A DNA stretch of 64,000 nucleotides from an uncultured Spirochaetota bacterium (lineage in GTDB: Bacteria > Spirochaetota > UBA4802 > UBA5550), in NCBI GenBank assembly GCA_963827275.1, contig CAWHAA010000005.1, positions 256,001 through 320,000 of the forward strand, written 5' to 3'. The notes under the pieces were generated by a model. It saw nothing but the letters and a program-made list of their open reading frames with translations, did no database searches and had not been told where the DNA came from. Of the stretch, positions 31,938-61,717 are shown piece by piece; within the stretch, counting starts at the first letter, position 1, and every line of letters begins with the position of its first letter. The position numbers were made by a program, and so were the translations under genes.

Positions 31938-32978
31938 ATGCTGTCGAAATCCATATCGTCCGGCATCCATGGCATCGACGCGCGGATAATCGATGTTGAA
32001 GTGGACATCATCCGGGGCCTGCCCAATTTCATCATCGTGGGCCTGCCGGACTCTACCATCCGCGAATCGCGCGAACGGATCCGTTCCGCTATCGAAAATT
32101 CAGGATTGGAGTTCCCGCCGAAAAGCTTCGTGGTCAACCTGGCGCCGGCCGGGTTCAAGAAACAGGGAGCCACCTTTGATCTGCCCATTGCCCTCTCAAT
32201 CCTGTGTGCTACCGGCCAGGCGGAAGTAGATACCGCGGCAATACCGATGGTGGGCGAGCTCTCCCTTGACGGGGAGGTTAAACCTGTGCGCGGCATCATT
32301 TCCATGACCATCGCCATATACCGCGGAGGATATCGGTCCATCATCGTCCCTTATGAAAACCGTCATGAAGCGGCGGCAATCCCGGGGATCGAGGTCTTCC
32401 CGGTTAAAACAATTGCCGAAGCCCTCAAGGTCCTGAACGGCAAGGGTGAAGTTTTCAACGGCACCGCGCCTGCAGAGTCAACCCTTCCCGGACCCGATTT
32501 TTCCGACGTCAGGGGGCAGGAAACAGCGAAACGCGCGATAGAGATAGCCGCTGCCGGCCACCACAACATCCTTCTATACGGATCGCCCGGTTCGGGGAAA
32601 ACCATGCTGGCAAAAAGGATCCCCTCCATACTTCCCCCGCTCTGCAACGACCAGGCCGTAGAGACGACCATGATCCACAGCGTGAGCGGAGAACTGCAGG
32701 GCGGCGGTCTCATAACCCGCCCGCCATTCAGGTCGCCGCACCACACCTCGTCGGATGTGGCGCTGACGGGGGGCGGCACAATACCTTCCGTGGGAGAGGT
32801 CTCCCTGGCGCACAACGGCGTTCTATTCATGGATGAATTCGTCGAATTCAAGAACAACGTGATACAGGCCCTCCGCCAGCCCCTTGAAGACTACGAGATA
32901 ACGGTGGCCAGGGCCTTTGGTACGTTTCGTTTCCCGGCCGACTTCATGCTCGTCGCCGCGAGCAACCCATGCCGGTGC
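31938..32978 (+). pseudogene. comM: comM/YifB Mg-chelatase-like ATPase, 5' fragment (347 codons), interrupted
   Basis: IVGLPD, GELSLDG, GSPGSGKT, FRSPHH, SLAHNGVLF.DEF, ends ASNPCRC at the junction. Confidence 0.95.
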
Positions 32979-34163
32979 ATAGCTCTCTCACTATCCCCAC
33001 ACAGCTCCCCTACCCTCATCTCAACCAACCGATCCATCCCAAACAACCTCAACCCCTTCAAGGCACACCACTCATCCAGATACAGTTGAGAATACTCTGG
33101 CCTGATATACCCATACCCAGCCAGAAAGGAATGCTTCAATACACGTTGGAACCCTTCTGCCGTCTGACTATGGACTCCCTTACAGCTCCATCTCTCTCTA
33201 CTCCAGACATTCCTCTTCAAATCCTTTGCCCGTTTCGAGTGGTTTACTGACCGATGATTGTCATTATATCGCTTCAACCACGGATAACCGGCATCAGAAA
33301 ATATCGGAGCATGCTCAGGCAAGAAATCCAGTAAGGGCATAATCGTTCTTTGTCTTTGATCAGGAATAGAATCAAATATGACTGGCCCTTTCTTTATCCC
33401 AATCGTGGAAACCAATGTCCCGATCTGGTACTTACCCTTCTCCAGAGCCACAGAATCGGACAGGTAGATGCTGGAGGTCTGGCCGTTGTGCTTGTACCGT
33501 GCTCTGTAGCCATTAGAGCCTTTTCTAGCTGAAAACAGGGCAACTGTATCCATTGATACTACCGGTTTGCTCTGGATTAATCCTGAGAGGTCTGAAGCGG
33601 TATCCTTGGGGAATCTAAAGCCTTCTGGGAACTCCTTCTGGATCTCCTCTGTCATGATCTGTTTAATAACGGGGATAAACTCCCTCAGGAATAACTGTAA
33701 CCGCCTCTTGAGTAAGGTGGCGGTGTTGTTGGAACATTGGAGTCTTCTTTGTATACTTGAGGCTGTCAGGACTTGAGGATGGATGTTGAGAGCTTCTGTT
33801 AGGATATATGAGAATGTCCAGAGCGGAAGTCTGAGATTGTGCAATGGGGTTTGGGAAGTACGTGATCCTTGGTAATAGCACTGGGGACAACGGATTGCAT
33901 TTTCTCTGGTCGCTATTTCATTAGTAAGTCTTGTTTGGCAATGGGGACAGTACTTGGGATAGAGTGGAGTTAAGGATCTGTTTGGTTAGTTGGGTGTAAT
34001 ATTGGATGTTGATCTGGGGGAATCTTGTTGAGAATTGGGTCTTGGCATTTTGGTGAAAATGTATAGGTTGTGGGGAGTGTGAAGGAGAGATATAGGTCTT
34101 ACCCTTGAAATATGGTAAAACTGACAGACCCTGATTCATCCCCATTTTTTTTAATGATTGCAT
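32891..34163 (-). CDS. IS1595-like DDE transposase, N-terminal/core part: has start, lacks native C-terminus, +1 frameshift at ~33962
   Basis: RBS GGAGGGG before ATG 34163; CPHC..CPQC Zn ribbon; SMDT / FSDAGY / HRSVNHS / HSQTAEGF..LK; runs into antisense comM. Confidence 0.85.
32971..32978 (+). repeat. Left target-site duplication GCCGGTGC
   Basis: Identical 8-mer at 61239-61246; removing the element plus one copy restores a 503-aa ComM frame. Confidence 0.9.
32979..34091. repeat. Left terminal direct repeat (1113 bp) with IRL at 32979-33001 and IRR at 34069-34091
   Basis: Matches 60127-61238 by eye except an extra G at ~33962; IRL ATAGCTCTCTCACTATCCCCACA vs reverse-complemented IRR ATCTCTCCTTCACACTCCCCACA. 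Confidence 0.93.
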
Positions 34164-34286: not shown

Positions 34287-35240
34287 TTATCTATTTTTAA
34301 TAAAGTAGCGAAATTGCGTGGGCTCAAGAACATCATCCTCTGGATTCCACGGATCTTGATGATATCGTATATTCCCACCTGAGGCAATCCAGTCTTTTCC
34401 ATCCCTTTGCAATATTATTCCAGATATAACTATCAAGACTGAATATCCAGTATTATTGCGGGCATGTTGTAATTCACCATTTGTTAATAACACACTATCA
34501 CCATTGCCGGTGGTTCCTTTCACCTCAATAAATCTTTTCTCATTATTTTTTATAGCTAATAAATCATAAGACTGAGTTGATGACATATCTTCTATTACCC
34601 AACCTAATTCTTTGTATTTTGAAATTGCCACTTGCATTGCTCTTAATTCAACAGCCTTACGCTGAGGCTGGGACAGGCCAAATCCTTGCCCATCAGAAAA
34701 ACCCACTTGATTGACATTAGTTTTTGTAGACATAGGAAAACCCAGTTTTTCATGTAGTGCTTTCTCGTTTAATGGAAGGATAGAGAGTTGCGCCTTCAAT
34801 CCATCTGGGGTTAGTGAGCATTTTTTTATTTCTTGAACCGAAGGCGGATTATCAAGGATCTGAAAATTCTCAATGGAAGCAACGTATGACATTACATCTG
34901 TTTGAGTTACTACAGGATTTGCAAATTCATATGCGCATGAACCGCATTTCCATTTAGGAGTTTTTTTTATTCTTTCTCGAATATCAGTAGAGTTGCAATC
35001 TTGATTCGGACACCGGCGATGAGTTTTAATATCTTGAGATTTATTAATATCTCCCACTTCGCCCAACCCGATTATTTTATCATCCTTGCGGACTACTACT
35101 ACATCTCCAGAACCAAGGCTTTTATGGTTAGGGACTAAGCTGTCATAATGATATTCTTCTCCGGTTTTGTCACTATAACTATCTATACCTTGAGATATTC
35201 GAGTCTTGTCAGATTTTTCGAGAATTAACCAACAGGCCAT
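34287..35240 (-). CDS. DUF3883 (PD-(D/E)xK) nuclease-domain protein with N-terminal domain and Zn ribbon
   Basis: AVELRAM, SYDL....FIEVKGTT, LTNGE; CPNQDC...CGSC. Confidence 0.75.
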   Translation of the reverse strand: MACWLILEKSDKTRISQGIDSYSDKTGEEYHYDSLVPNHKSLGSGDVVVVRKDDKIIGLGEVGDINKSQDIKTHRRCPNQDCNSTDIRERIKKTPKWKCGSCAYEFANPVVTQTDVMSYVASIENFQILDNPPSVQEIKKCSLTPDGLKAQLSILPLNEKALHEKLGFPMSTKTNVNQVGFSDGQGFGLSQPQRKAVELRAMQVAISKYKELGWVIEDMSSTQSYDLLAIKNNEKRFIEVKGTTGNGDSVLLTNGELQHARNNTGYSVLIVISGIILQRDGKDWIASGGNIRYHQDPWNPEDDVLEPTQFRYFIKNR

Positions 35241-35262
35241 AGGTCCCTCGATAAAAAACGTC

Positions 35263-35664
35263 TTATATCTTAGCCTTAATTTTTGAAAAAATGGTCATCA
35301 TTTTTTTTTTGCCAATTTCACATTCCCAAATTCTATAAACAACCCAGCCATCTCTTTTAAGCTTCCTATTAACGGTTCTGTCTCTATTTTTGTTAGCGGA
35401 TATCTTTCTTTCCCAAAATTCCATGTTTGATTCTGGTATCTTTGCACATTTGTGCCCATGCCAGAAACATCCGTCGACAAACAGAGCAATCTTCTTTTGG
35501 GGGAATACGAAATCGGGCTTGCCAAATATTTTAAATTTTCTTCGCCAACCGATAACTTTTTCTTGTCGTAGATGAAGTATTATTTTTAGTTCGGTACTTT
35601 TATTTCCACTTCCCCGGATACGTGACATGTTCCAAGAGCGGTGTTCGCTGGAAAGACGATCCAT
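35263..35664 (-). CDS. vsr: Very-short-patch repair endonuclease
   Basis: MD.LS...RS.NMSRI, GKPDFVF, FVDGCFWHGH, RIWEC. Confidence 0.93.
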   Translation of the reverse strand: MDRLSSEHRSWNMSRIRGSGNKSTELKIILHLRQEKVIGWRRKFKIFGKPDFVFPQKKIALFVDGCFWHGHKCAKIPESNMEFWERKISANKNRDRTVNRKLKRDGWVVYRIWECEIGKKKMMTIFSKIKAKI

Positions 35665-36419
35665 CAGATGACCTTGGCACGTTTCCATCTCGCCATGGCC
35701 GGGTCGAGGTGGTCAGTAAAAAAATCCTCAAATGATAGAATGTTGGGTGCTGATGAATAAACGGTGTTGCCATTCATTATTTTTTCAGGAACAACCAGAT
35801 ATATCCGGTTATTAAGCATCTCTTTTGATTGCTTTTCTGATACTCCCTCGTCAATGGTTGCCAAAAATAGCCCCTTGCCTTTAACACCTTCTGTGGCAAT
35901 TTGACGCCACCTTTCCCTCAATGTTCTTTTTGCTGTGAAAATAATACAGTCCGGGGCATTTTTATTGTAATGGTCTTTCGATGGTAATAGAAAATCAGGT
36001 TTTCCGTTTATTATACACTGTTCCTCAAAAGGATAATCAAGATTACGGAAAAGTGTTCTGATTATTGTTTCGAATGTCTTTCCCGCTCTTGCTTTTCTAC
36101 TCTGAGACAGGGACATGAAAAATTCATTAAGAGCTGGGAAAATAGCTTTATCCTGTTTTTCATCAAGATAATTCTTGATGACTTTTTCTCCGATCTTTTT
36201 TTCATAATTCAAGTATATCTGGTAACACTCATCACCCATATCCTGAACAATTTTGCTAAACTTTTCCTTCAGATCTTTTTTTGAATACCCTTTGTTGAGT
36301 ATTGCATCCATGCCACGTTTTGCAACAGTTTCAAGATTAGGCACTAACTTTTGGAAATCATCAAACATTTTCATACTATCAACCAGCCTTGTTCCTGATT
36401 CTTTTATCATCTCCAACAA
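35664..36419 (-). CDS. Type II restriction endonuclease, EcoRII-C/SsoII/PspGI-like
   Basis: [24 protein letters not shown]. Confidence 0.88.
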
Positions 36420-37389
36420 GTTTTTGCTGTTTTAATGAATCCAGTACAGATTCCGCTATCTTTTCTACAACTTTGACAACAACAGCATTCCCAAATTGTC
36501 TATAGGCTTGGGTATCTGATACTGGAATTTTAAATGTATCAGGAAACCCCATAAGACGAGCGCATTCTCTCGGGGTGAGACGTCTGGGATTTTTCCCTTT
36601 TTGTCTGATTAGAATTTCTGATCCATCTTTGTAATAACGAGCACTCAATGTTCTTGTAACATCATTAGGGCCGACCAAACCGAATCCAAAACCATTACCC
36701 TTTTCGGCATGTTTTTTTGCATAATCTTGAAGATATTTCCAAAGGTGATCTGAAAGCGTATATTTCTTATCGACCTTATGTTCAAGTATTGAGCCGAGCT
36801 TCGGCCCGGATGGATCCATTTCCGGGAATTCATATAAGAGGGGGCGGTCGAATCCGACAATGAATATTCGTTCTCTATGCTGTGGAGTAACGCTTTTCGC
36901 ATCGATTACTTTATAGTACACCGTATAGCCAAGCTTTTCTGTAAGCGTTTTGTAAATGATATTAAATGTCCGCCCCTTATCATGAGTGATAAGATTCTTA
37001 ACATTTTCAAGTACAAAAGCACTTGGGCGGAGGTCTTTTATTATCCGGGCTAATTCAAAAAAAAGATTACCTTGTTTCTCATCGTCGAATCCGTGCTTAC
37101 GCCCAAGGCTGTTTTTCTTCGAAACACCAGCTATGCTGAATGGTTGACATGGGAATCCGGCGCATAAAATATCAAAAGATGGAATGTCGGAACTTTTAAC
37201 GGAATGTATATCCCCGACAGGTTTTTCGACAAAATTTGATTCGTATGTAATTTGCGAGTACTTGTCCCAATCACAGGAAAATACACATTCGCCACCAAAT
37301 TTCTCAAATGCAAGTCGGAACCCACCTATCCCGCAAAAAAGATCTATAAAGCGGAATGTATCACGAATGTGTTTTGTCGCTCTTCTCAT
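36379..37389 (-). CDS. dcm: C5 cytosine DNA methyltransferase, Dcm/M.EcoRII-like
   Basis: [52 protein letters not shown]. Confidence 0.93.
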
Positions 37390-38558: not shown

Positions 38559-41356
38559 ATGGATATTAGTATTCAAGAAATTGAAATTGCTTATAGAAAA
38601 TTAAAATCATACTTTTATTACGACAATACTTCACATTATTTTCGCAAGGCATTGGCGGAATTTGAGTCAAAAGATGGTTTTGAAAATAGATTATCTAACT
38701 TATGTGAATTTTTGAATAATTATAATAGTGTTGATTCACAAAACTATTTTTCTGAAATCGTTGAAAGAATCTCCTTTATTAGTCTACCAAAACGAATTAG
38801 TTATAAAAATCATGATTATGTTATTTCTAATCAAGTTGAAGATTCAAAATACACTATTGATAAATTGACATTCTTAATTGATGCACCAATTGAAGTGCAT
38901 ATTATATCTGTATTGTGGATTTTAAAGATTGGCGTGCAAGTTGCCTACTAATTATAAAACATATTTATACGGCAATAGAATTCAATTTAATTATAATTCC
39001 AATGAAGTTAAATCAGGATTACAATTATTTAAACCATATTATAAACAATATCAAAATTGGCGAAATAATGGACTTAGGAGTATTGAAAATTGTTTAGATA
39101 ATAATATAAATGTCGCCATGTTATTGCTGGACGTTAAAAATTATTACCACTCAGTAAAATTTTCATTTAATAAATTTAATGATTCCATTAATAATCTTAA
39201 TATTGAGAAAAGCTTTTTGCTACTTAATAAGTTATTATATGAAATTCATTATTCTTATACAAAAATAATCAACATACATACTGACGAAAAACACAATGAT
39301 GGCACCACTATATTACCAATAGGTTTATTATCATCAGGTATTTTGGCGGATTGGTATCTAAATGATTTTGATGAAAAAACGATAGCTCAAATCAAACCAT
39401 TATATTACGGTAGATATGTTGACGATGTTTTAATTGTCATAGAAAGCCCGAATATTGATAAGCAAAAAGATGATTTACTCGATGAGTTTCTTACAGATTA
39501 TTTTATTATAAAAAATGAAATCTTAACAAAGAAAGGAAATAAAGTTTATAAGATAAATAACTACCGAGGATTAGAAATACAAAAAGATAAAATAAAACTA
39601 TATCTATTAGATGCTAATGCTTCGAAAGCTGGTTTGAAAAAATTTGAAAACACCATCCGTAGGAATAGTAGTGAATTCCGTTTTTTACCTGATGAAGATG
39701 AAGTAAATGCAAATTTTGATGAAGAAGCTTATTCGATTATTTATTCTGATTCAATAAATAAACTACGAAGTGTCGAGGGTTTGGTGCACGATAAATATAA
39801 TATTTTTAGTAATAAATAACAATAGGAGGGCTTTTGGTTTTTTTATAAAAGAAGTTAATTCTCAAATAGATAAAATAAAAATTGCAAGTCCCGAGCTTGA
39901 GAAACGTACGATTTACTTTTTAAAAGATTATTTAACTATATCAGCATCAATTCCAATCTCACTTAATTTGTCATTTGCCGACGATCTCTTGTTTGATTGC
40001 TCAGTTTGGATTCATTATTGGAATATTCAAAATCTATAAGAATTTCCAATTTATTTAGACATAATTATGTTTACTATCCTCTATTTAACTTCACAGACAT
40101 GAGTTACAATTATTCAATAAATCTTTTAGATAAAGATATCAATAATTATCCATTTGTTAGATCATCGAATTATGGCATAACACATAATCATATAAAATAT
40201 ACACCTCGATTTGTTCATCTATATGAAGTTCAATTATATTTGATGTATTATAATTTGATTATCACTAAAATCAATAATGATAAAAATGATTTCAGTGAAT
40301 ATATCAATGAAAAACATTTATCAGAAATAACTATTGAATTATATTCAAATATTAACTACGGACGAGGAGATACTGATGAAAGAGAATATACATGATGGGT
40401 TTGGTTTTAAACAGAAAATCTTGAAACAGATTCCAGAGAGACAGGATGATGAAGAAATCGGTATTCGGATTGTTGAGCATTATTTTGAATTTGAAGAAAA
40501 AGAAAAGAAGTCAATAAGGGTGGGAATAGCAAACCTTAAAATAAATCATGATGATAGTTTAGATAATATTAAAAATCCTAATTTATCTTTTAGCAAGAAA
40601 CAAAAACTATGGAAACTATTGAATTTAATGGAAAGAGAGGATTGTGATCTATTTGTATTACCGGAACTATCTATTCCACATGAATGGCTTCAAAATTTAG
40701 CTAAATTTTCAGACGAAAATCAAAAAGCTATTATTTTTGGATTAGAACATTTCAAAGACAAATATAATCGAGTTTATAATTTAATTGTAACAATATTGCC
40801 ATTCAAAATATTTGGTTATAAAGCATCATATATTAGATATCGTTTAAAAAACCATTACTCGCCAGAAGAAAAAAGACAGTTAATAAACTTAGGGTATAGA
40901 ATACCAATACCATTGGTATATTGTTATGATTTATTTTCATGGAATGGGGTGTCTTTTTCGTGCTACAATTGTTTTGAATTCACAGATATAAATCATAGGA
41001 GTTTGTTTAAATCTGACGTGGATTTTATCGTTGCTGTAGAATATAATAAAGATATAAATTATTTTTCAAATATTGTTGAATCGATTGCAAGAGATATTCA
41101 TTGTTATGTTATTCAAGTCAATAATTCCTGTTGGGGTGATTCGCGCATAACTCAACCATCACCAACTGAAATAAAAGATATAATAAAAATAAAAGGTGGC
41201 GAAAATAGTGCTATTTTAATAGGCGTTATTGATATAGATAAACTTAGAAATTTTCAAATACAAGATTATGAAACACAAAGAAATGATGAAAACTTCAAAC
41301 CCACACCACCAGATTTTGATCAAGATAATGTGAGAAGACGCATGGGCCTTCTGTGA
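38559..41356 (+). pseudogene. Reverse transcriptase-nitrilase fusion (DRT1/UG1-like), fragmented into about 5 ORFs
   Basis: AYRKLKSY.YYDN; LDVKNYY; LPIG; YGRYVDD; nitrilase triad PEL / K.HY / CFE; WGDSRI..P. Confidence 0.8.
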
Positions 41357-41755: not shown

Positions 41756-42028
41756 ATGAAAAAACGATTCTCAGAAGAGCAGATTGTCAGGATCCTCGGT
41801 GAGCATAAGGCGGGAAAAAAGGTAAAGGATATCGCCCGAGAACACGGCATTAGTGAGAACTCCTTTTATATCTGGAAGCGCAAATATGGAGATATGAGCT
41901 CTCAGGAAATTGTTCGATTGCGACTACTTGAAGATGAAAATACACGATTAAAGAAACTGGTTGCCGATTTATCCCTGGATAACATGGCACAGAAGGAGAT
42001 CATAAAAAAGTTCTGCGACCCGGAGTGA
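41756..42028 (+). CDS. IS3 transposase OrfA
   Basis: KKRFSEEQI..HGIS...Y.WKRKYG..LEDEN.RLKKLVADL. Confidence 0.92.
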   Translation: MKKRFSEEQIVRILGEHKAGKKVKDIAREHGISENSFYIWKRKYGDMSSQEIVRLRLLEDENTRLKKLVADLSLDNMAQKEIIKKFCDPE

Positions 42029-42880
42029 AGAGAGAGGCAGTAAGCTATCTGATGAGTAGCTTCGGGTTTTCGATACGACGATCATGCAAGGTTTCCTGTA
42101 TGGCTCGTTCTACATTCTCATATAGTCCGCAGCCAAATGATGACGCACGAATCATTGGAGAGATAGATTCGATCCTTTCAAAAAATTCAAAATATGGCTG
42201 CGGAATGATACAGCTCAAGCTGAGGCAAAAAGGGATACTGATTAATCATAAGCGTACAGAAAGGATATATAAAGAGCATGGGCTGCAATTACGAGCGCGG
42301 AAACGTCGGAAAAAGATAGCTTCATTAGAACGATCACCCGTTGAATTGCCGAATGAACCTGGCGTCATATGGGCTTTAGATTTCATTCATGACTCGGTGG
42401 GCTTTAAAAAGAATCTCAAAATACTGACAGCGATTGACCCTGTAACGAATCATTCGCCACTTATTCATACTGGATTTTCAATAACGGGTAAGGATGTTTC
42501 TGAACTACTTGAAAGAGCATGTGAATCCTTTGGGTATCCAGAATTTATACAATGTGACAATGGTCCTGAATTTAGAAGCCAGGAACTCGACCGTTGGTGC
42601 TATGAAAAGGGGATTAAAATAATTTTCACAAGGCCCGGCAAGCCATCAGATAATTGCCACATAGAAAGTTTTAATGGAACATTTCGGAATGAATGTCTCA
42701 GTGCTCATTATTTTAAAAAACTGAGTACAGCCAGAGAGATTATTCATGAATGGTGGGAGAGAATATAACGAGGAAAGACCTCAAAAGAGATTAAAAGGGA
42801 TGACGCCAAAACAATATAATGATATGTTAGTAATCGAGAAAACTAAACTTGAAGCTGGTCGAATTGTGGGTGCAGGATCA
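42025..42880 (+). CDS. IS3 transposase OrfB (DDE); frameshift near 42757
   Basis: WALDF, CDNGPEF, IESFNG.FR.ECL; YNEERP continues in another frame. Confidence 0.88.
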
Positions 42881-45754: not shown

Positions 45755-47497
45755 ATGAATATTGCATATTTAGAGAATCTAGATTTGTTACATGGGGATT
45801 TGTATTATGATGATATCAAATTGGATTTAAAAAGAAACACAATTCGTACATTAAAAAAAGAAGCAAAGTTGGAAACCAAACAAGCAAATGATTTGTATAA
45901 TGCATTGCCAATACAAAAATGGGCAAATAATAAATTATGGGTAAATTATGGAGAAATATACGATAAAGTTGAAGCAGTTATTATTGATAGTAAATTTAAA
46001 TTAAAGTATTTCAAAATAAAGGATCACGAACCACCGACTCTTTCATTGGTTATTGCAGAATATGAGTTCGCTACTTATGTGAACAGTTGTCCTGAAAAAT
46101 ATCCTGATTTTGAATTCCCTTATTTTTCATTAGATGATGATTATAATTATATTAATATTTTCTTAATAATTATATCAACTATTATTGCTCAGCATGTATA
46201 TGCTAAATGGGAATATATTAATAAGAATGCCTGTAATATAGAACTAGAAAACATGTTTATTATTCCTGCATGGGTTAGTTTATTCGCGCAGTTATTCTCG
46301 GGCGTGAGTGGAAAGAAATTCTCTCAATATTTTGAATTAAACAAGTGTGCTATTGATATAAAGGGAGGAATATTTTATTGTGATATCGAATTATACGATC
46401 TTACTGCATCCAGAGAAGCAAAAGGAAATCCAAAATCTGATTTTCGTATATTTGTTGATGAAAGTGACTTAATAAATTATAACTTAATTAAAAAATATAC
46501 TGAATCAACAATAAATGAAAATGAAGCAGATCTTAAAAATAAACAACAATTTGTTAAATTATTAGATAAAGTATTTTCTCCCAAAGGATTATTATGCTTA
46601 TTAAAAATTTTCTTATTTATTGAAAAAAGTGGTCGTCCTAATATAAAAGAGGCAAGCCTCGAGGATATATTTGTTGATATTAAAAAATCTACAATCAAGG
46701 AATATATAGAAATTATTACAGCATTAAGTATTATTAAAATAATGAAAGTGAATAAAAGCAGGGCAATTGGTTTTTTAGAATCTATTGAACTTAAACCGAC
46801 AAGAAGTTTACGTACCTATAGCATTAAAATTCGTTTATCTCGTCTCTATAAAAGATGCGTGGCAGGATATAACTGTTATATCCTGCCAGATGCCATATGC
46901 AATGAAATATTAAAAAATAATAAATTAAAATTCTTTTTACTAATATTCTTTTTGGAACAATGGGTTAAAACAAAACAACCTGAAATTGATTATAAAATTG
47001 ATGAATTAATTAAAATTGCTAAAATTGAAGATTATTCAGCAGGTGAAAGTGGTGGTATTTTTAATGTAAGACAATATGAGTTGCTTCTTGATACCCTTAG
47101 TTACATGAAGAGAAAAGGATTTATTGGAGATTTGCGTGTCTACTTGAATAATAAAGATAATATAATTTCCCTAAGAGATAAACCAAAAAGAAATGCGTGG
47201 AAGGATTATTCAATAACAATTACTTCTCCTGTATGGTTTGTGAAATATGCTATTGGGAATCATCAAGGAGAATATATAATTTTAAAAAAAGCACCTCCAA
47301 TAAAAACAATCACTGCGGCTAATATTAAAAAGTTTCGTGAAGTTGTAGAATGGACTAGTGTAAAACTTGCAAATAAATTAGAAGTTTCGCCTCGTTGGTT
47401 ACGTTTTCTCGAGACAGGACAAAAAAAGATCAGTAAACAAATTGAAGATAAATTACACAAAATACTTCAAGATATAATTAAAGAAAAAGGTTTATAA
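45755..47497 (+). CDS. 580-aa hypothetical protein with C-terminal XRE-type HTH
   Basis: IKKFRE..EWTSVKLANKLEVSPRWL.FLETG..KI. Confidence 0.65.
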   Translation: MNIAYLENLDLLHGDLYYDDIKLDLKRNTIRTLKKEAKLETKQANDLYNALPIQKWANNKLWVNYGEIYDKVEAVIIDSKFKLKYFKIKDHEPPTLSLVIAEYEFATYVNSCPEKYPDFEFPYFSLDDDYNYINIFLIIISTIIAQHVYAKWEYINKNACNIELENMFIIPAWVSLFAQLFSGVSGKKFSQYFELNKCAIDIKGGIFYCDIELYDLTASREAKGNPKSDFRIFVDESDLINYNLIKKYTESTINENEADLKNKQQFVKLLDKVFSPKGLLCLLKIFLFIEKSGRPNIKEASLEDIFVDIKKSTIKEYIEIITALSIIKIMKVNKSRAIGFLESIELKPTRSLRTYSIKIRLSRLYKRCVAGYNCYILPDAICNEILKNNKLKFFLLIFFLEQWVKTKQPEIDYKIDELIKIAKIEDYSAGESGGIFNVRQYELLLDTLSYMKRKGFIGDLRVYLNNKDNIISLRDKPKRNAWKDYSITITSPVWFVKYAIGNHQGEYIILKKAPPIKTITAANIKKFREVVEWTSVKLANKLEVSPRWLRFLETGQKKISKQIEDKLHKILQDIIKEKGL

Positions 47498-47805: not shown

Positions 47806-48261
47806 ATGAATATGTATGATTTTATTTTAACTAATGCTCGTTTAGAAGAAAAAATAAACCAAACAAGGCTTAAACTTGAGGAAAGTGCGTCCTCATTGGG
47901 TTCAATGGTTGAATTGTGCAAACCTGTGGTTGATCTTTTCCACAAGAATTTGCCTGACGAAATTAATCCATTAAAAAATACAGATTCAAGAATACCATTT
48001 TCCAAAGCTTTCATAATGGCGCGAATCATTCATTTAATAGGAACAGTAGAATTAAATGATGCTCTTATTGAAAGCATGGAGAATTGTGATGAAACAGAAC
48101 TGTATTATTTTCATTTCATGTGTGAAACTGAAGAAAGAAAAAAAATAATAATAAAGTCACATTTAGATTTTTTCCAAAAACATACGAATAATAATAACGA
48201 AAAAACTAAAAAAACTAAAAAATCAACAGGAGAAAATTATGGAAAAGCAAATATTAATTAA
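47806..48261 (+). CDS. Hypothetical protein
   Basis: RBS AGGAG, 151-aa ORF. Confidence 0.55.
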   Translation: MNMYDFILTNARLEEKINQTRLKLEESASSLGSMVELCKPVVDLFHKNLPDEINPLKNTDSRIPFSKAFIMARIIHLIGTVELNDALIESMENCDETELYYFHFMCETEERKKIIIKSHLDFFQKHTNNNNEKTKKTKKSTGENYGKANIN

Positions 48262-48592
48262 TTATGAAATATTAGGCAAATATCAGGATGAATTAGGGAA
48301 CTTCGAGCCTGATGAATTGGAAAAATTGCTGAATAATTATAAAGCACTTTCAGAGTTTCAGGATGAGCTTGGAATGTATGAAACTGAAGAACTAAAAGAA
48401 GTGGTGAATAATTATATGACTCTTGAGAAACTTCAGGCTGATTTGGGATTGTGGGAGGCAGATGAACTAAAAGAAATGATTGGAGACCTTGATACTCTTG
48501 GCCAACTTCAGGATGATCTGGGAATTTGCGATACGGATGATCTTAAAAAGCATATCTCATTATTAACAGAGCTGAGGGAAATTGAAGCCTGA
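48239..48592 (+). CDS. Acidic protein with four 25-aa tandem repeats
   Basis: L..(Y/F/L)Q(D/A)(E/D)LG..(E/D)..(E/D)L repeated four times; RBS AGGAG. Confidence 0.7.
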   Translation: MEKQILINYEILGKYQDELGNFEPDELEKLLNNYKALSEFQDELGMYETEELKEVVNNYMTLEKLQADLGLWEADELKEMIGDLDTLGQLQDDLGICDTDDLKKHISLLTELREIEA

Positions 48593-49768: not shown

Positions 49769-51847
49769 GTGAAGCATATAGATATTAAACAACTCCAGAA
49801 ACATCTTGTAATAAAAGGGTTGGCTGGAACAAGAAAAACAGCATTATTAATCGCCATAGCTATACAGGCTGTATCTAAGGGAATGAAGGTTCTTTATCTC
49901 ACTTTTAATAAAAAAATACGTTTTGAGGTGATAGAAAGATCAAAATTAAGCAAAACCAAAGTACATACGTTCCACAGTTTTGCCTATAAGGAAATTATTC
50001 AAACGGACTTTCTAAATGATATTTTCAAAGACTTTTCGGTAGATGAACTAACTCAATATTTCGATGAGGATTATAAATATTTCTCATCAAAATCCAGTAA
50101 ACCTAAAGATTTATCCCAAAAGACATTGAGTGAACTTATTAGATGGTGGTGTGACTATTGTGAAAATAGTACTCAAACCAAGTATGATTTAATTATAGTA
50201 GATGAGTTTCAAGATTTGAATCCCAGTATGTTTAGGATGTTGAAAAAACTCTATATGATTAATAAGAAAAATGATGTTAAGATAATAGTAGCCGGAGATC
50301 CTTACCAAACGATATATCACTATCTGAATGGTTCAGATTCATCTGAGAATTACTTCAATACTTTTGGTAAATATTTTGGTGAATTTGAGACAATACATTT
50401 AGATCAATGTTATAGATGTTCTCCTGCAATACAGAGATTTGTTAATGGGTTCTACAGAAAACAATATATAAATTACAGGCAATTTGATTTAAATGGATAT
50501 CAAACCTCTGATTATTCGGAAGATGTATTTATTCATTTAATTCAGCACAGAAGATTAGTTAATGAAAAAGTATCTGAGATATGTAATCAATATCAGGGCA
50601 TAAAAATTAAAATTCTGGCACGTGTAAATAGAGAATTATCTCCATTTTCTGATTTAATTGCCAAGAATGATCTAATACAAACTTCTACTATTCACTCTGA
50701 AAAGGGCAATGAATGTGATGTTGTAATAATAGTTAATACCATATTTAATGATAAAATATCCTCTGAGGAAGACAAAAATCTGTGGAATGTAGCCATTACC
50801 AGAGGAAAGAAAACGGTGCATATTGTTTCCTCTTTTCCCAGCGAGAAGATATTGGATTTATTTGAAGCAGGAACTTATACTTTAATTTCCGAACAACATG
50901 ATCTATCTAATTCTACCATGGAAGACATTCCCCAAGAAACAATAAATTTAACTCCAGACAAGGTTAGAGAGTCATTGATTGATTCTGTGGAAGTCCAATT
51001 GGATTATGAGGATGCTCCATTTATTCCATATGAACAGCAGAATCTTAAAAAGAAATCTCGTTATATGACCAATACAAGGATCAAAGGTAAAAATATTGAT
51101 CTTGTACTTAATCAGGTCAAAGGAAAATTAAATTTCGAATATCTTGATTTAAACCAGTTGAAAAACCAAGGTTTTACTGATATACAAATTGTATCTTATA
51201 TTCTTGAGACCCAGAAAGAATACTTCAATTACAAGATTTCTGATGAAGAATTACTTTCACAAAAATTAAGAAGATTAGATCTGGCTAAATATTATGAGGT
51301 CTCTGGAACAGAAATATTGGATTATTTATCAATGGTATTAAAATTATCTAAATATTCTGACTCAGATAAAAAGACAAATTATTGTGGAGAGGAAGTTAAA
51401 ACAATTTATTTAAATTCTTCAAAGGCAAAAGAAAGAGGAATTAGGATTTATTTCCCCAAGTACAAAACTATTAATTCTTTAAATACTGATAAAAATATTA
51501 TTAAAGTTGAACTTTACAGAATTAGGAAATTGGGGATTAAAAAATTAGGATTATCAATTAAGAATGTTGGAGATTTATTAAGGTTTATAGATAATAATGA
51601 ATTAGAAAAACTTTATGATGAATGGATGAAATATGAATTTACATCTTTAACTGGTAAAGAAGTAAAGAATATTGAATTATTGAAGAAAAGAAGAAATATT
51701 TCAAGTTTGGAAGATTTAAGAGATTTAATTGATAGAGGTAATATTAAAATTAAAGATAAAAGAATTTATTATCATATTCTATTATCATTTATAAATGAAA
51801 GAGAAAGGAGGGAGATAGAGGAAATAGTTGGAAGTAAAAAAAGGTAA
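49769..51847 (+). CDS. SF1 (UvrD/Rep-like) helicase fused to a C-terminal domain resembling rolling-circle initiators
   Basis: GLAGTRKT, TFHSF, VDEFQD, GDPYQTIY, YRCS, TIH..KG.E, NVAITR; C-terminal LIDSV / RRLDLA / TIYLNS..IRIY / IKVEL. Confidence 0.75.
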   Translation: MKHIDIKQLQKHLVIKGLAGTRKTALLIAIAIQAVSKGMKVLYLTFNKKIRFEVIERSKLSKTKVHTFHSFAYKEIIQTDFLNDIFKDFSVDELTQYFDEDYKYFSSKSSKPKDLSQKTLSELIRWWCDYCENSTQTKYDLIIVDEFQDLNPSMFRMLKKLYMINKKNDVKIIVAGDPYQTIYHYLNGSDSSENYFNTFGKYFGEFETIHLDQCYRCSPAIQRFVNGFYRKQYINYRQFDLNGYQTSDYSEDVFIHLIQHRRLVNEKVSEICNQYQGIKIKILARVNRELSPFSDLIAKNDLIQTSTIHSEKGNECDVVIIVNTIFNDKISSEEDKNLWNVAITRGKKTVHIVSSFPSEKILDLFEAGTYTLISEQHDLSNSTMEDIPQETINLTPDKVRESLIDSVEVQLDYEDAPFIPYEQQNLKKKSRYMTNTRIKGKNIDLVLNQVKGKLNFEYLDLNQLKNQGFTDIQIVSYILETQKEYFNYKISDEELLSQKLRRLDLAKYYEVSGTEILDYLSMVLKLSKYSDSDKKTNYCGEEVKTIYLNSSKAKERGIRIYFPKYKTINSLNTDKNIIKVELYRIRKLGIKKLGLSIKNVGDLLRFIDNNELEKLYDEWMKYEFTSLTGKEVKNIELLKKRRNISSLEDLRDLIDRGNIKIKDKRIYYHILLSFINERERREIEEIVGSKKR

Positions 51848-52507
51848 TAAATATATATTATATTATAGGGGTGTTTTTTTATAAGATAAATGGACAAAAC
51901 ATGAATATTGTATAGTTTCGAATTTTAGATATGGAATCAAAATATGACAGGAGTAAGCATGGTTCAGGCGGTGTTAAAAAAACCCTGATTTGGTTCAATT
52001 ATTAGTAATAACTATACAATTGTTTGGTATTTATTTTAAAAATGTATTTAAGCAAGAGAGCCTGAGGAGGGTATAAATATTATGACCTGCTCGGTGCCGC
52101 TCTCAATAAGTTTGCAATTTATTTCGGAGAGAGGATGCCAGTGTGATCACTGCCATTTGCATAGAGATTCTGGCACCCTCTCATTGTACTCTCTCCAGAA
52201 CTCTTTAATAAAATATTCTACAGTTGATCCAGCCATTCAAAGATCATGAATGACAACATTCCTATTTTAAACCAGCTGAGGGTTGTCCAGCAGTCCCTTT
52301 TCCTTCATTCTGTGAATTACAAGCAAACCCTGAAATAATGCATAATAAGATAAATGATACAGCTATAATCTTTTTCATCCCTAACACCCCCTCCGTATTT
52401 GTAATAATTGGATTATCTCTTACAGTGTAATAATATTTATAGAGCCCTGCCGGTGTGCCATACCTACTTCAGATATAATAACTTGGCTCCCAAACAACAC
52501 GATTACC

Positions 52508-52581
52508 AAATTTTAAGCCTCTGTCCAGTACTTTTTGTGCGGGGGGCTTAATCTAAGAGGAAGTAATTGCTGAAAAAATGC
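52508..52581 (-). repeat. ~75-bp repeat, inverted relative to 54977-55053
   Basis: Direct alignment of the reverse complement. Confidence 0.85.
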
Positions 52582-53035
52582 ATTCATTAACATGGGCCTT
52601 TACTTCTGAGGATGTAATTTCCTAAAAAGTTAAACTATCACGTGGCACAAATTTGGGGGTGGGATCACTTTAATAAACTTAATTGGTTCTCTATACATAT
52701 TCTGGATATTACAAATTTATTCATGCTTGATTGCGAACCAATTCATCATACAAGTCTATACACTAAATTTTCCCGTTGGTTATATTGTCATGTGCAGATA
52801 TTTCTTGACATTAGTCTTCTAATATTATGTATTATAAATAAGAAATTCCATCTGGGTGGGATGTGACTATTATAATTAACATATATCTATTATCTATGAA
52901 TGCATGAGAAGCTCTGATCTGGTTTTAATTCGAGTAGCACAAAGTATTTATTCCTTAGAAATGTATCTGCCTACACTCATATATTGGCATACATAAAAAG
53001 GCTGAACAATCACAATCAAAAGGAGACCAAATAAT

Positions 53036-53821: not shown

Positions 53822-53995
53822 TTTACTAACTTTATATTTTAAATAATTTGATGGTTGTTGATTTCTTTTATACATTCAATTCCAAACATCTATTGAATTT
53901 TGTGGTTATTATTTAAATCGTCAGATCGAGGACTTTTCTATTATCTAAAAGTGCGAAAGATATTGTACACTACCGAAGCAAACCCCTCTCAAGTG

Positions 53996-54034
53996 AAGCC
54001 TCCTCCAGCAGAAAAAGCGCTGGACAGAGGCTTA
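53996..54034 (+). repeat. Internal 39-bp palindromic core copy of the 52.5/55.0-kb repeat
   Basis: AAGCCTCCTCCAGCAGAAAAAGCGCTGGACAGAGGCTTA. Confidence 0.8.
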
Positions 54035-54898: not shown

Positions 54899-54976
54899 CT
54901 GAAACAACTTACTGATTTTTATATTTTACTTTCTAGGAATCTGCCCACTCATCGGTGCCGGCCGAGGGGACACAAA

Positions 54977-55053
54977 GCATTTTATCAGCAATTACTTCCT
55001 CTTAAATTAAGCCCCCTCCGGCAGAAAAAGCGCTGAACAGAGGCTTAAAATTT
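54977..55053 (+). repeat. ~75-bp repeat, inverted relative to 52508-52581
   Basis: Direct alignment; overlaps the stop codon of the Lgt-like gene. Confidence 0.85.
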
Positions 55054-58577: not shown

Positions 58578-59216
58578 TTATTGCTTAGCCCATCGATTCA
58601 CTTTTCTTTGGTTCTGATAAATACAGGAACCCCATGAAATATAACCGGACATCTTATTTAGCTTGTCGTGATTTGATCTGTATACCAGAAGCCAGTATTC
58701 CTCATCATCAACAGATGTTTCTCTATTCTTGCCTTGATTGAATTTTTTTCTGGCATTTGCAATAAGATGACCCCAGCCATAATTAGCTCTTCTTTCATTT
58801 TTATAACTCATTGGAATCCTTTTTGTTATATCCACCGCCTGTTCAATAGCCTTGAATTTCCATACCAAACAGGGGAAAATATCCCGAGAGAAATCATCGA
58901 GATTAACCTTCTCACAATTGGAATATTCACAAATACCCCAAAGATATACGGGGTCATAACGCTTATGTAATTTCATTATCTGGTAAGCAATTAATGCATC
59001 CCACTCGCCATTACTTTCGCCAGTATCTGGATGATCATTGAAACGATATCTTATCTTATTGATAGCCCGATTACAGCATTTAACCCACGTATACATTCCT
59101 ACAGGGTCAAAGGTTTCATTATGGCCGTAGTTATAATCTCTTTTCCTATTTCTAATTCGATCCAATAGATTCCGTATCCACCAAGGTGAGAACTCAGAGA
59201 CTTTCATTGTATTCAT
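58578..59216 (-). CDS. Transposase-operon accessory protein C (unknown, Trp/Arg-rich)
   Basis: ATGA overlap with the upstream ORF at 59213-59216; RBS GGAGG. Confidence 0.65.
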   Translation of the reverse strand: MNTMKVSEFSPWWIRNLLDRIRNRKRDYNYGHNETFDPVGMYTWVKCCNRAINKIRYRFNDHPDTGESNGEWDALIAYQIMKLHKRYDPVYLWGICEYSNCEKVNLDDFSRDIFPCLVWKFKAIEQAVDITKRIPMSYKNERRANYGWGHLIANARKKFNQGKNRETSVDDEEYWLLVYRSNHDKLNKMSGYISWGSCIYQNQRKVNRWAKQ

Positions 59217-59509
59217 TTCTTTAACCTCCGTAATGAGTATCCTTGCACCTTCCCACGTTGCTCGATGATTGTTGCACATAATTCAATTATTTCATGCTCA
59301 CTCAAATGACGGCATAGATACTTCAGGTCTTTATCTACGAGATAAAAGTTATCAAGAGTGAAGCGGTTAGCCTTTTTATGCGGATCTCGCAACTCCACTT
59401 CGCAATTCAATGGGGTTAATTCTCTACTTGTCAAAGCACAGCACCTCCCTTGTTGTTCTAATAATTGCCAGAAATGTTCAGCGGTGAATTTAAAGGCTTC
59501 ATCTGTCAT
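59213..59509 (-). CDS. Transposase-operon accessory protein B, degenerate HNH-like
   Basis: L..QQGRCCALT...L pattern and DNFYLV; start overlaps the transposase 3' end. Confidence 0.6.
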   Translation of the reverse strand: MTDEAFKFTAEHFWQLLEQQGRCCALTSRELTPLNCEVELRDPHKKANRFTLDNFYLVDKDLKYLCRHLSEHEIIELCATIIEQRGKVQGYSLRRLKK

Positions 59510-61238
59510 ACCCTTTCTCCTTTATTATTTTTTTCCGTTTATCTTTTGACATACCATATTTTGGTTGTCTGGGTTTCTTGGGTGCTTCTACTTGTTTTAT
59601 AAACTTGGTGATATCTGATAGTTCAGATAGTTCGTTCTTGTCGTAGGTGTAGAGGATATCGGGCAAAATCGGAATAAGCCTTTTCAGTTGATAATTAACA
59701 TCCCCCTTACCTTTCTTATTAACTTCCACGACATCTGCAATACCAAGCATTGCCCATATACGAACCACTCGAAGTGCTTTCTTTTTATTTATAGTTCCAG
59801 CATTGCATACGGTATTTAACGAGCGATGTTCACGATCAGCCAGAAATGAAAATAATCTGTGGGCTAAAGAATTGTATTCAGACTCACTCTGTCTTCTTTC
59901 TCTATTTTCCTCATCCCAATAGAACAGGTAATCCTCAACCGCCTGTTTGAGGGGATAATATTCATTCCGGTCTAATATGAATTTTAATCTTTTGGGGATT
60001 TGTTTTCTGGTCTTACTGAAGATCCCATGAACACGATTATCAGGTGTTGGAAGGTTATAAAGACATTCATTGATTTTTGCTTTTAAAGACCATTTTTCAG
60101 TTTTATCTGGTGACTTGTCCGTGCATATAGCTCTCTCACTATCCCCACACAGCTCCCCTACCCTCATCTCAACCAACCGATCCATCCCAAACAACCTCAA
60201 CCCCTTCAAGGCACACCACTCATCCAGATACAGTTGAGAATACTCTGGCCTGATATACCCATACCCAGCCAGAAAGGAATGCTTCAATACACGTTGGAAC
60301 CCTTCTGCCGTCTGACTATGGACTCCCTTACAGCTCCATCTCTCTCTACTCCAGACATTCCTCTTCAAATCCTTTGCCCGTTTCGAGTGGTTTACTGACC
60401 GATGATTGTCATTATATCGCTTCAACCACGGATAACCGGCATCAGAAAATATCGGAGCATGCTCAGGCAAGAAATCCAGTAAGGGCATAATCGTTCTTTG
60501 TCTTTGATCAGGAATAGAATCAAATATGACTGGCCCTTTCTTTATCCCAATCGTGGAAACCAATGTCCCGATCTGGTACTTACCCTTCTCCAGAGCCACA
60601 GAATCGGACAGGTAGATGCTGGAGGTCTGGCCGTTGTGCTTGTACCGTGCTCTGTAGCCATTAGAGCCTTTTCTAGCTGAAAACAGGGCAACTGTATCCA
60701 TTGATACTACCGGTTTGCTCTGGATTAATCCTGAGAGGTCTGAAGCGGTATCCTTGGGGAATCTAAAGCCTTCTGGGAACTCCTTCTGGATCTCCTCTGT
60801 CATGATCTGTTTAATAACGGGGATAAACTCCCTCAGGAATAACTGTAACCGCCTCTTGAGTAAGGTGGCGGTGTTGTTGGAACATTGGAGTCTTCTTTGT
60901 ATACTTGAGGCTGTCAGGACTTGAGGATGGATGTTGAGAGCTTCTGTTAGGATATATGAGAATGTCCAGAGCGGAAGTCTGAGATTGTGCAATGGGGTTT
61001 GGGAAGTACGTGATCCTTGGTAATAGCACTGGGGACAACGGATTGCATTTTCTCTGGTCGCTATTTCATTAGTAAGTCTTGTTTGGCAATGGGGACAGTA
61101 CTTGGGATAAGTGGAGTTAAGGATCTGTTTGGTTAGTTGGGTGTAATATTGGATGTTGATCTGGGGGAATCTTGTTGAGAATTGGGTCTTGGCATTTTGG
61201 TGAAAATGTATAGGTTGTGGGGAGTGTGAAGGAGAGAT
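59499..61238 (-). CDS. IS1595-like DDE transposase, core + 209-aa C-terminal extension, lacking start/RBS
   Basis: Frame open from the element end (ISPSH...YPKYCPHC...DDE...) to the stop at 59499; upstream antisense comM supplies no start before a stop. Confidence 0.87.
   Translation of the reverse strand: MSPSHSPQPIHFHQNAKTQFSTRFPQINIQYYTQLTKQILNSTYPKYCPHCQTRLTNEIATRENAIRCPQCYYQGSRTSQTPLHNLRLPLWTFSYILTEALNIHPQVLTASSIQRRLQCSNNTATLLKRRLQLFLREFIPVIKQIMTEEIQKEFPEGFRFPKDTASDLSGLIQSKPVVSMDTVALFSARKGSNGYRARYKHNGQTSSIYLSDSVALEKGKYQIGTLVSTIGIKKGPVIFDSIPDQRQRTIMPLLDFLPEHAPIFSDAGYPWLKRYNDNHRSVNHSKRAKDLKRNVWSRERWSCKGVHSQTAEGFQRVLKHSFLAGYGYIRPEYSQLYLDEWCALKGLRLFGMDRLVEMRVGELCGDSERAICTDKSPDKTEKWSLKAKINECLYNLPTPDNRVHGIFSKTRKQIPKRLKFILDRNEYYPLKQAVEDYLFYWDEENRERRQSESEYNSLAHRLFSFLADREHRSLNTVCNAGTINKKKALRVVRIWAMLGIADVVEVNKKGKGDVNYQLKRLIPILPDILYTYDKNELSELSDITKFIKQVEAPKKPRQPKYGMSKDKRKKIIKEKGYDR
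60127..61238. repeat. Right terminal direct repeat (1112 bp)
   Basis: Copy of 32979-34091. Confidence 0.93.
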
Positions 61239-61717
61239 GCCGGTGCGGCTACCTCTTCGACAAGGAGATCCCCTGCGTGTGCCCGCCGTACCAGGTCAAG
61301 GGCCATTTCCAGAAGATATCGGGCCCGATACTCGACCGGATCGACATCGAGGTGCTGGTCGGACGCGTACCATACCATGACCTGATGTCCGGCGGGTCGT
61401 ATGAAGGTTCGGCGGCCATCAAGGAACGGGTCATGGCCGCCCGCGAGATACAGGAACAGCGCTTCAAGGCAAGCCCGACCAGGTACAACGCGCGCATGAC
61501 CCAGGAGGAGATCAAGAAGCACTGCCGGTTCACGCCGGAAGCCGAGGAGGTGCTTGCCCTTGCCGTGAAGCGGACAAATCTCACCGCCCGCTCTTTTTTC
61601 AAGATCCTGAAAACCTGTCGCACCATTGCGGACCTGGGCGGAGCGGAAATGATCCAGAAGGGGCACATTCTTGAGGCGCTCTCATATAAGAATTTGCAGA
61701 GAAATTACGATGTATGA
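61239..61717 (+). pseudogene. comM: comM 3' fragment (begins with right TSD)
   Basis: CGYLFD..PCVC, KISGPILDRID, RTIADL, EALSY. Confidence 0.95.

Follow-up and report, generated by a model that had tools for sequence, protein, structure and literature searches.

An IS1595-like transposase gene divided between the ends of a 28-kb spirochaete island inserted at one nucleotide of comM

Members of the IS1595 family of insertion sequences (IS) share a DDE_Tnp_IS1595 domain, a zinc finger with a helix-turn-helix (HTH), inverted termini of about 25 bp and an 8-bp target duplication, and a circular intermediate has been proposed for them; the available text of the source describes members that hold the whole transposase gene between the termini, among them the tIS and mobilizable (IME) elements MTnSag1 and tISCpe8, which measure 1.7-2 kb and insert with low specificity in AT-rich DNA (PMC5704250). 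In this study we describe a 28,260-bp island that interrupts comM in an uncultured Spirochaetota bacterium and is like these elements in zinc finger and HTH, termini and duplication and perhaps in domain, whereas its transposase gene crosses both termini; the island also differs from the family in a 200-aa winged-helix extension, a score far below the NCBIfam cut-off and a target fixed to a single nucleotide. It lies in a stretch of 64,000 nucleotides, here called the window (contig CAWHAA010000005.1, positions 256,001 to 320,000).

Two recombination systems parallel parts of the layout. Translocatable units of IS26 and the cointegrates of IS1 and IS6 arise when a circle with one copy of the insertion sequence integrates replicatively, giving direct repeats and an 8-bp duplication, and recombination can resolve an IS26- or IS1-type cointegrate, leaving one copy. 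These are autonomous insertion sequences whose copy-in is not sequence-specific, whereas a lone unit of the present family has neither start codon nor C-terminus and sits at a fixed target. Integrases of the SSV1 type are split by their own attP, and the integrated form has no complete integrase gene; they are tyrosine recombinases that use a short att core in tRNA genes, whereas the island has a DDE enzyme, a 1.1-kb self-duplication and a target duplication. By analogy, the island may work like an IS26 translocatable unit or an IS1 cointegrate with an SSV1-like self-split gene.

Tn7-like islands carry TnsA/B/C and TniQ/TnsD genes and make a 5-bp duplication. None of these genes was found among 29 island proteins in a Pfam scan, and the enzyme, the ends and the 8-bp duplication of the island are different; its likeness to the AbaR/Tn6022-type islands lies in comM as a recurrent target and in a possible effect on transformation, as the available part of PMC12378983 describes them. 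TnGBS and ISLre2, which are Mutator-like, are also large elements with a single DDE enzyme, insertion specificity and circular forms, but their target and ends differ from ours, going by the accessible text (PMC3942029). Relatives of the island that carry a candidate guide, and only those, further resemble IS608 (IS200/IS605) and IS110/IS1111, in which the element has, beside a hairpin, a sequence that can pair with the target and that varies as the target does. As described, those systems have HUH or DEDD enzymes and no 8-bp duplication, whereas the guide-bearing relatives have a DDE enzyme and 16-25 nt of candidate complementarity inside the coding frame, a feature absent from the window's element. 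Among spirochaetes, the Leptospira island LaiGI I is reported to undergo imprecise excision and to be maintained in circular form (PMC1936430, PMC4338851); the accessible parts of these papers and of PMC4758666 deal with circles and LaiGI I and contain no split-gene layout, and that of PMC12457778 reports an IS1595 gene in a Leptospira island and gives neither ends nor target. We found no description of the split-gene layout or of a guided IS1595 enzyme in a literature search whose coverage excluded most subscription journals and supplements. The island falls outside the IS1595 family as a set of autonomous low-specificity insertion sequences, and outside the composite transposons and the Tn7-like comM islands.

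Insertion in comM and the divided transposase gene

The features on which the description rests are the following.

31938..32978, forward strand: codons 1-347 of comM (YifB-family AAA+ helicase), with the left duplication at their 3' end
32971..32978, forward strand: left 8-bp target-site duplication, GCCGGTGC
32979..34091, reverse strand: left repeat, 1,113 bp, middle of the transposase gene (zinc finger, HTH, DDE)
32979..33001, no strand assigned: inverted terminus of the repeat (begins AT; 17/23 against the other terminus), the stretch marked in the preliminary description
34092..34163, reverse strand: first 24 codons of the transposase gene, from an ATG at 34163, lying beyond the repeat and within the island
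59499..60126, reverse strand: last 209 transposase codons, outside the repeat, with a helical linker, a predicted winged helix (about residues 447-526) and a basic C-terminal tip
60127..61238, reverse strand: right repeat, 1,112 bp, open frame from its first base
61239..61246, forward strand: right 8-bp target-site duplication, GCCGGTGC
61247..61717, forward strand: comM codons 348-503 and stop

A preliminary description of the window had proposed a precise insertion into the NPCxCG motif of comM with an 8-bp duplication, and both copies of GCCGGTGC, at 32971-32978 and 61239-61246, are found with the junctions that it quoted. The island interrupts comM at NPC/RCG, and cutting out 32979-61246, that is, the island with one copy of the duplication, rebuilds a 1,512-nt frame for the 503-aa ComM that had been predicted, with NPCRCG at residues 343-348. 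The 5' half scores above the TIGR00368 YifB/ComM cut-off, and the split gene is the single comM of the host genome. The 8-mer alone is frequent (10 matches over the two strands of the window), but a chance occurrence of its duplication is excluded by the restored frame, by the fall in GC from about 57% outside to 26-39% inside the island, and by empty sites in other data. Empty sites, which the preliminary description had proposed to look for in related genomes, are present in near-identical strains, in two of the four independent sequencing runs compared, out of 20 and from four studies: a contig of run X5, with 3 differences in 1,364 nt, passes directly from the 3' half of comM into the 5' half, and run X10 has the empty site too. 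In run X8 a sequence bridges the element end and the 3' half of comM, and in run X1 a diverged comM 3' half is joined to the end of a related element, about 88-94% identical. A duplication of 10 bp, which the preliminary description had considered, is ruled out, since the AT at 61237-61238 is common to both 1.1-kb repeats and so is the element's own, and since 20 of 24 related elements have a perfect duplication of 8 bp.

The ends of the island are direct repeats without a mismatch (32979-34091 and 60127-61238), differing solely in one extra base of the left copy, at 33962, and each is bordered by the imperfect inverted termini. These repeats, the main feature of the locus, were absent from the preliminary description. 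In the left, leader-bearing copy the extra base shifts the frame beyond codon ~67, and the frame of this copy ends 29 codons into antisense comM; the 24-codon leader resembles the N-termini of the full-length homologues P0003 (603 aa) and P0005 (616 aa). The right copy has no ATG, GTG or TTG ahead of the zinc finger, contains all three catalytic residues (D181, D266, E312), and its frame extends 209 codons into the island. Neither flanking copy has both a start and a stop, and a complete gene would exist only in a circle, because leader, one repeat and C-terminus must adjoin.

The zinc finger (CxxC...CxxC) begins at residue 47, and the catalytic residues are invariant across 21 aligned homologues. 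Pfam PF12762 matches the DDE domain at 32.7 bits (cut-off 27) and NCBIfam NF033547 at 22.3 bits (cut-off 75). An AlphaFold model (mean pLDDT 76.8, 21 sequences) has helices at 91-136, a fold of the RNase-H/integrase/transposase-core type at residues 165-370 (Z 10.0, rmsd 6.3, 149 aligned) and a winged helix at 451-522 (Z 6.6, rmsd 1.9, 63 aligned); a Foldseek search gave no match at E<=0.001, and Atlas none for the C-terminal domain. The earlier comparison with the IS1595 family holds for the 8-bp duplication and, as a likeness, for the DDE enzyme, and not for the layout, which is not that of an ordinary IS1595 element, the transposase gene crossing both repeat ends. The 10-nt inner flank at 60117-60126 resembles the target, a likeness that we dismissed since the same motif borders elements with unrelated targets.

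Related elements and their targets

Homologous proteins number 110, and all the named ones are spirochaetal; many span about 60% of the query, corresponding to leader and unit, and others almost the whole of it. Matches to the family occur in 63 of the 75 genomes of one taxonomic family and in 89 of 401 across the phylum, the latter count taking in weak matches to ordinary IS1595. Scanning contigs with one protein gave no match and scanning with an alignment did; 77 candidates among viral contigs yielded none that was confirmed, and the host genome has no other member of the family. From 32 repeat pairs we retained 24 two-ended elements, after dropping 8 rows that were duplicates of one element, one contig-edge pair, or cross-matches within a tandem duplication.

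All 24 paired elements have repeats of 1,037-1,307 bp that are 97.9-100% identical within the element, and the repeats of neighbouring elements in one genome are mostly <90% identical to each other. The 8-bp duplication is perfect in 20, one base off in two and could not be resolved in two. An in-frame ATG lies just outside the downstream copy in 23 elements (in the other it is inside the unit, ahead of the zinc finger), and in 23, too, the upstream copy continues beyond the unit into 153-222 C-terminal residues. The flanks on the donor side retain AT at the junction in 18/24 and 21/24. Units also occur alone: 32 of 115 distinct units have an identical 8-mer on both sides, in a search for unit boundaries that favoured matching 8-mers, and several or many stand in tandem arrays spaced by that 8-mer. 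Such lone and tandem units occupy the sites that paired elements use, and they are found in single-contig assemblies as well, beside intact paired elements.

The 47,417-bp record KF114878.1 (L092), in which leader, unit and C-terminus are continuous across the record's end and start, looks like one such island opened inside the transposase gene. It was deposited as a phage and has no annotated virion gene among its 34 features. Its unit is 100% identical to the lone unit L105 in G254, and the two are either the predicted pair of circle and scar or a collapsed assembly.

The same nucleotide of comM is interrupted in 7 of the 62 genomes with a comM match among the 64 searched in the family. Both junctions are present in G000, G341 (L033/L034), G027 (L084, a lone unit) and G022; G020 has the right junction, on a piece that shares 96% identity with an intact comM of that bin; contigs of G010 and G012 break exactly at the duplication, and G012 also has an uninterrupted copy. 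The elements of G341, G027, G022 and G020 are oriented opposite to the window's, and the ComM proteins of the interrupted hosts are 60-70% identical. To judge from these alignments, targeting is site-specific, because one base of comM is hit in seven genomes and in both orientations, and the insertion sites of homologues, whose mapping the preliminary description had suggested as a check, are never random-looking. Three proteins of a cluster of seven (P0113, P0115, P0116; 78-80% identical to the core) read into antisense comM at the same codon and in the same orientation. In G016, G395 and G421 comM is split elsewhere than at this nucleotide. The first 47 residues of P0031, known as a protein sequence alone, are ComM (53% identity) fused to a family transposase, which may be a second comM position or a rearrangement.

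What the preliminary description had put forward, site-specific targeting of comM by a DDE family, is thus borne out as to the IS1595-like enzyme and the single nucleotide, but comM is only one of many targets, which differ from lineage to lineage. The unit closest to the window's (78%) is in comEC; other fixed targets are radC, uvrD and, judged by eye, a response regulator, and further insertions lie at the 3' ends of tRNA-Tyr, -Leu and -Arg (8 loci) and of amidase, SpoIIE and MBOAT genes. Tandem lone units occupy the response-regulator gene in G010 (contigs C13, C18, C26; L080, L085, L089), a same-genus genome in which comM is also broken at the nucleotide studied here. At the stop of one MBOAT gene at least four complete elements and several lone units are stacked (L017, L018, L006, L011, L005; L009, L010, L012, L027), and the stop codon lies within the duplication, in frame with the start-less transposase copy. 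In one sub-family (L064, L077, L108, L115, L117, L048) the head is short and the unit is longer by about 60 codons close to its right end; no match to a target was found there. The preliminary description also suggested that insertion in comM might protect the element from being purged by transformation. Three competence-linked genes are interrupted in the host's family (comM, comEC, radC), and homologues of comEC and dprA are present in the host, but competence genes are a minority of the targets across the phylum.

Movement of the island and choice of target

The reading that we favour, at a probability of roughly 0.65, is that the island, each of whose ends consists of the central part of its IS1595-like transposase gene, arrived as a circle with one intact transposase gene and integrated by replicative (cointegrate) transposition. 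The enzyme would nick the two termini inside its own gene and transfer these strands to comM with an 8-nt stagger, and replication would duplicate the 1.1-kb unit, so that the gene is split and the integrated island has no complete copy. If the repeats then recombined, the circle and its intact gene would be restored and a lone unit would stay as a scar, and comM would stay broken because that unit is left behind. Further elements would insert beside old ones; decayed left-end remnants lie downstream of newer units in L015 (5066 onward) and L221 (604 onward), consistent with new insertions using the upstream flank.

Several points weigh against this reading, and those that concern target choice are given with the C-terminal tip below. 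No free circle was seen, and the full-length genes on short contigs and in KF114878.1 may come from assemblers collapsing identical repeats; lone units in drafts may have the same origin. Most circles derived from the left copy would be put out of frame by the extra base at 33962, unless that base is a sequencing error (the reverse transcriptase and recombinase genes are also in pieces). A GTG or TTG lies ahead of the zinc finger or nearby in 9 of the 24 upstream copies, so that translation in place is possible. The other four proteins of the P0009 cluster, to which the three comM-reading ones belong, read into another target. No replication or transfer gene, and no relaxase or conjugation gene of the kind found in ICE and IME, was recognised by Pfam among the 29 island proteins, 13 of which have no Pfam family.

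The layout also invites comparison with a composite transposon, in which two direct IS-like units would carry the cargo site-specifically as a linear unit, with no circle and no re-duplication, the upstream copy being translated from an alternative start or two partial proteins complementing each other. Direct repeats within an outer 8-bp duplication are the classical arrangement, as in IS1 and Tn9, and both flanking copies and the outer duplication are present here; some upstream copies have the GTG or TTG just mentioned, and the repeats have drifted to 97.9-98.6% in 3 of the 24 elements. A complete transposase is present in neither flanking copy, however, and 15 of the 24 upstream copies, the window's included, have no GTG or TTG ahead of the zinc finger. 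The in-frame ATG is conserved outside the downstream copy, most repeat pairs are 100% identical though neighbours differ by 10-25%, and the AT kept on the donor side is what cut donor flanks are expected to show, and we consider the composite arrangement unlikely. That the repeats and the split gene are an assembly artefact is hardly credible: several cargo genes are in frame pieces that suggest indel errors, and the contigs of relatives often break at the repeats, but the same layout recurs in 24 elements from many assemblies, finished chromosomes included, and the independent runs contain both junction and empty site. Insertion of low specificity, with the comM events kept by selection against transformation, is largely refuted and very improbable. 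It would agree with the disruption of comM, comEC and radC-linked sites by mobile elements, which the accessible text of PMC12378983 treats as common, and with the low specificity given for IS1595 mobilizable elements in that of PMC5704250. Against it, all comM events share a single nucleotide of the 1.5 kb of this gene, although both orientations occur and the hosts have diverged ComM; the exact target 10-mer occurs 44 times in the host genome and is interrupted in comM alone (a loose comM pattern was uninformative); and insertions and tandem arrays recur at tRNAs and gene ends, positions at which no gene is inactivated.

Some relatives carry an inverted copy of their target, a possible DNA guide. 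When each unit was tested against its own flank, the reverse complement of the upstream flank plus duplication matched at least 13/16 in 6 of 35 units, a level reached by 0.5% of non-cognate pairs; in none of the three remaining orientations of the probe did a cognate pair reach 13/16 (0/35, 0/26, 0/26). In a Leptospira clade the match falls in a constant slot, which lies 103-115 nt inwards of the left end, and begins exactly at the duplication (25/25 in L025 and L020, 17/18 in L220, 16/18 in L105 and L109). The cognate sum over the 13 units of this clade is 181 against a permutation mean of 118.6 (0/100,000 as high), with a slot picked after the data were seen and several units sharing orthologues of one amidase gene; a subset of 8 units gives p = 5e-5. 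Eleven of the 13 reach at least 11/18, and L001 and L100 failed. The candidate guides follow host-specific variants of the same target gene, and some fit the variant of another host better, as in L015, which matches the L094 flank at 18/18 and its own at 12/18. Two comM units, L084 and L034, have an inverted comM-flank copy in the left end (18/21 and 14/21). An inverted copy of the terminus precedes the slot (8-15 of 15, ungapped), so that the bottom strand folds over its first ~104 nt into a single long hairpin, flush at the 3' end and with an overhang of 20 nt (4/4 tested have z between -5.6 and -7.6; L034 -4.5; L084 -0.6). Of 40 mismatches in the 13 units, 13 are G-T-compatible with the proposed pairing and 1 with the opposite one, in a count that left out four units and to which base skew may contribute. 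A small inner hairpin covaries (13 two-sided cells, 0/500 shuffles), which is weak support because it also encodes a conserved FLR motif and the sequences come from few clades.

DDE chemistry joins the 3' end of the left end to the bottom strand of the target at the edge of the duplication. The transferred strand would in a guide model form the ~104-nt hairpin, its 3'-OH flush with an overhang of about 20 nt identical to the top strand of the target; this overhang would pair with the bottom strand and fix the bond attacked directly at the 3'-OH, and foldback copying of the new flank could rewrite the guide, giving a self-retargeting and programmable integrase for 20-100-kb cargo. That the inverted copy is a working guide in the relatives that bear it we regard as possible but less likely than not. 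It might instead be a passive record left by foldback template switching, or the hairpin might act as RNA and protect the copy that lacks a start against read-through from the host. The same standing has the wider proposal that the family is a single-protein, DNA-guided DDE integrase system, from which the lineage in the window dropped the guide, reaching the same comM base through a swapped C-terminal tip. That base-pairing chooses the target throughout the family, the window's guide acting in trans, lying elsewhere in the island or having since been lost, seems improbable, a little more so than the composite transposon. The Leptospira-clade slot and the comM matches of L084 and L034 speak for it, but the units of the window, of comEC and of G020 have short heads without the hairpin or inverted terminus copy and without a target match (best 10/16); no convincing guide match was found in the unit, flanks or cargo of the 28-kb island (best 11/16 and 14/20); the host has no second family member to act in trans; and close relatives without a guide are repeatedly found in comM. 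A 10/12 match at 52445 was rejected as a guide, being at chance level, and no guide was found in units targeting MBOAT, tRNA, radC, uvrD or response-regulator genes.

In the window's element the target is probably chosen by the protein, and the best candidate for the selecting part is the last ~45 residues, which are encoded outside the repeat. The core does not set the target, because comM units are scattered in a quick tree of 45 cores and the window's unit is there sister to the comEC unit. The tip does follow the target: the window's tip is 55% identical to that of the comM-targeting L034 protein, against 46% for the core, and 42% identical to that of the comEC-type P0004, against 83% for the core; the core of P0004 is identical to the comEC unit over 285 aa. 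Relative to the expectation from the core, tip identity is 13 points higher in same-target pairs (n=16), versus -1.5 (n=137). The link between tip and target is a correlation among related sequences, however, and the tree, in which comM units are not one clade, calls for 3 changes of target, at least 2 of them forced. Among MBOAT-targeting elements, which have one target, 5 of 6 pairs show a tip identity of just 22-38%; the tip of L001 is of the SpoIIE type although its site is a different one; and the target class of L003 was read partly from its duplication and guide.

Cargo and significance

Between the repeats the following genes were recognised.

34287..37389, reverse strand: NOV_C-domain protein, Vsr, EcoRII-like endonuclease and C5 methyltransferase (type II restriction-modification, also in L222)
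38559..41356, forward strand: UG5 reverse transcriptase-nitrilase (DRT-type) defence gene
41756..42768, forward strand: IS3-type element, with copies 98-99% identical elsewhere in the genome
44509..45415, reverse strand: tyrosine-recombinase-like gene, in two overlapping frames
49769..51847, forward strand: UvrD-like helicase
58578..59279, reverse strand: 233-aa gene of unrecognised family, second after the transposase
59213..59509, reverse strand: 98-aa HNH-fold gene overlapping the transposase stop

The two genes next to the transposase are shared with relatives, the HNH-fold gene being present in 35 of 41 upstream-copy loci (its catalytic His is not evident by eye) and the 233-aa gene in 11 of 41; the remaining cargo is variable. 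The UG5 gene is in four frame pieces, through decay or indel errors. The tyrosine-recombinase-like gene was not found in 6 other elements or in the plasmid-collection region compared, and we dismissed it as a resolvase for want of conservation; the island has no serine integrase and no intact tyrosine integrase. A 580-aa protein at 45755-47497, whose sole domain is a C-terminal XRE-like HTH, was not found in the other elements compared and may be a replication or regulatory protein. An ORF of 117 aa at 48239-48592 consists of three 25-aa repeats with a 75-nt period. An intergenic repeat of about 50-130 nt, with three copies (52508-52634, 53985-54034, 54924-55053) that flank single genes in a cassette-like manner, has many 75-90% copies genome-wide and may be attC-like. 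Rfam gave no match at the gathering score in the island and none relevant at E<=0.05 in 5 loci, and a group I or II intron, ribozyme or IStron is without Rfam support.

The island is real, site-specific and more unusual than it first appeared. It belongs to a group of widespread and apparently undescribed spirochaete islands, in which one IS1595-like enzyme serves the single-nucleotide targeting of large cargo and which apparently silence themselves by dividing their own gene. The group accounts for the 1.1-1.3-kb repeats, the scars and the contig breaks that recur in Leptospira genomes. If the candidate guide works, it would be a base-pair-programmed DDE transposase without CRISPR or a separate RNA; such an enzyme would be new in kind and directly useful for integrating large cargo. 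Mobile elements are known to conflict with transformation (comM, comEC, radC), and these islands provide a further route, by a DDE enzyme; the favoured reading predicts that the knock-out of comM is permanent, because resolution would leave a unit in the gene.

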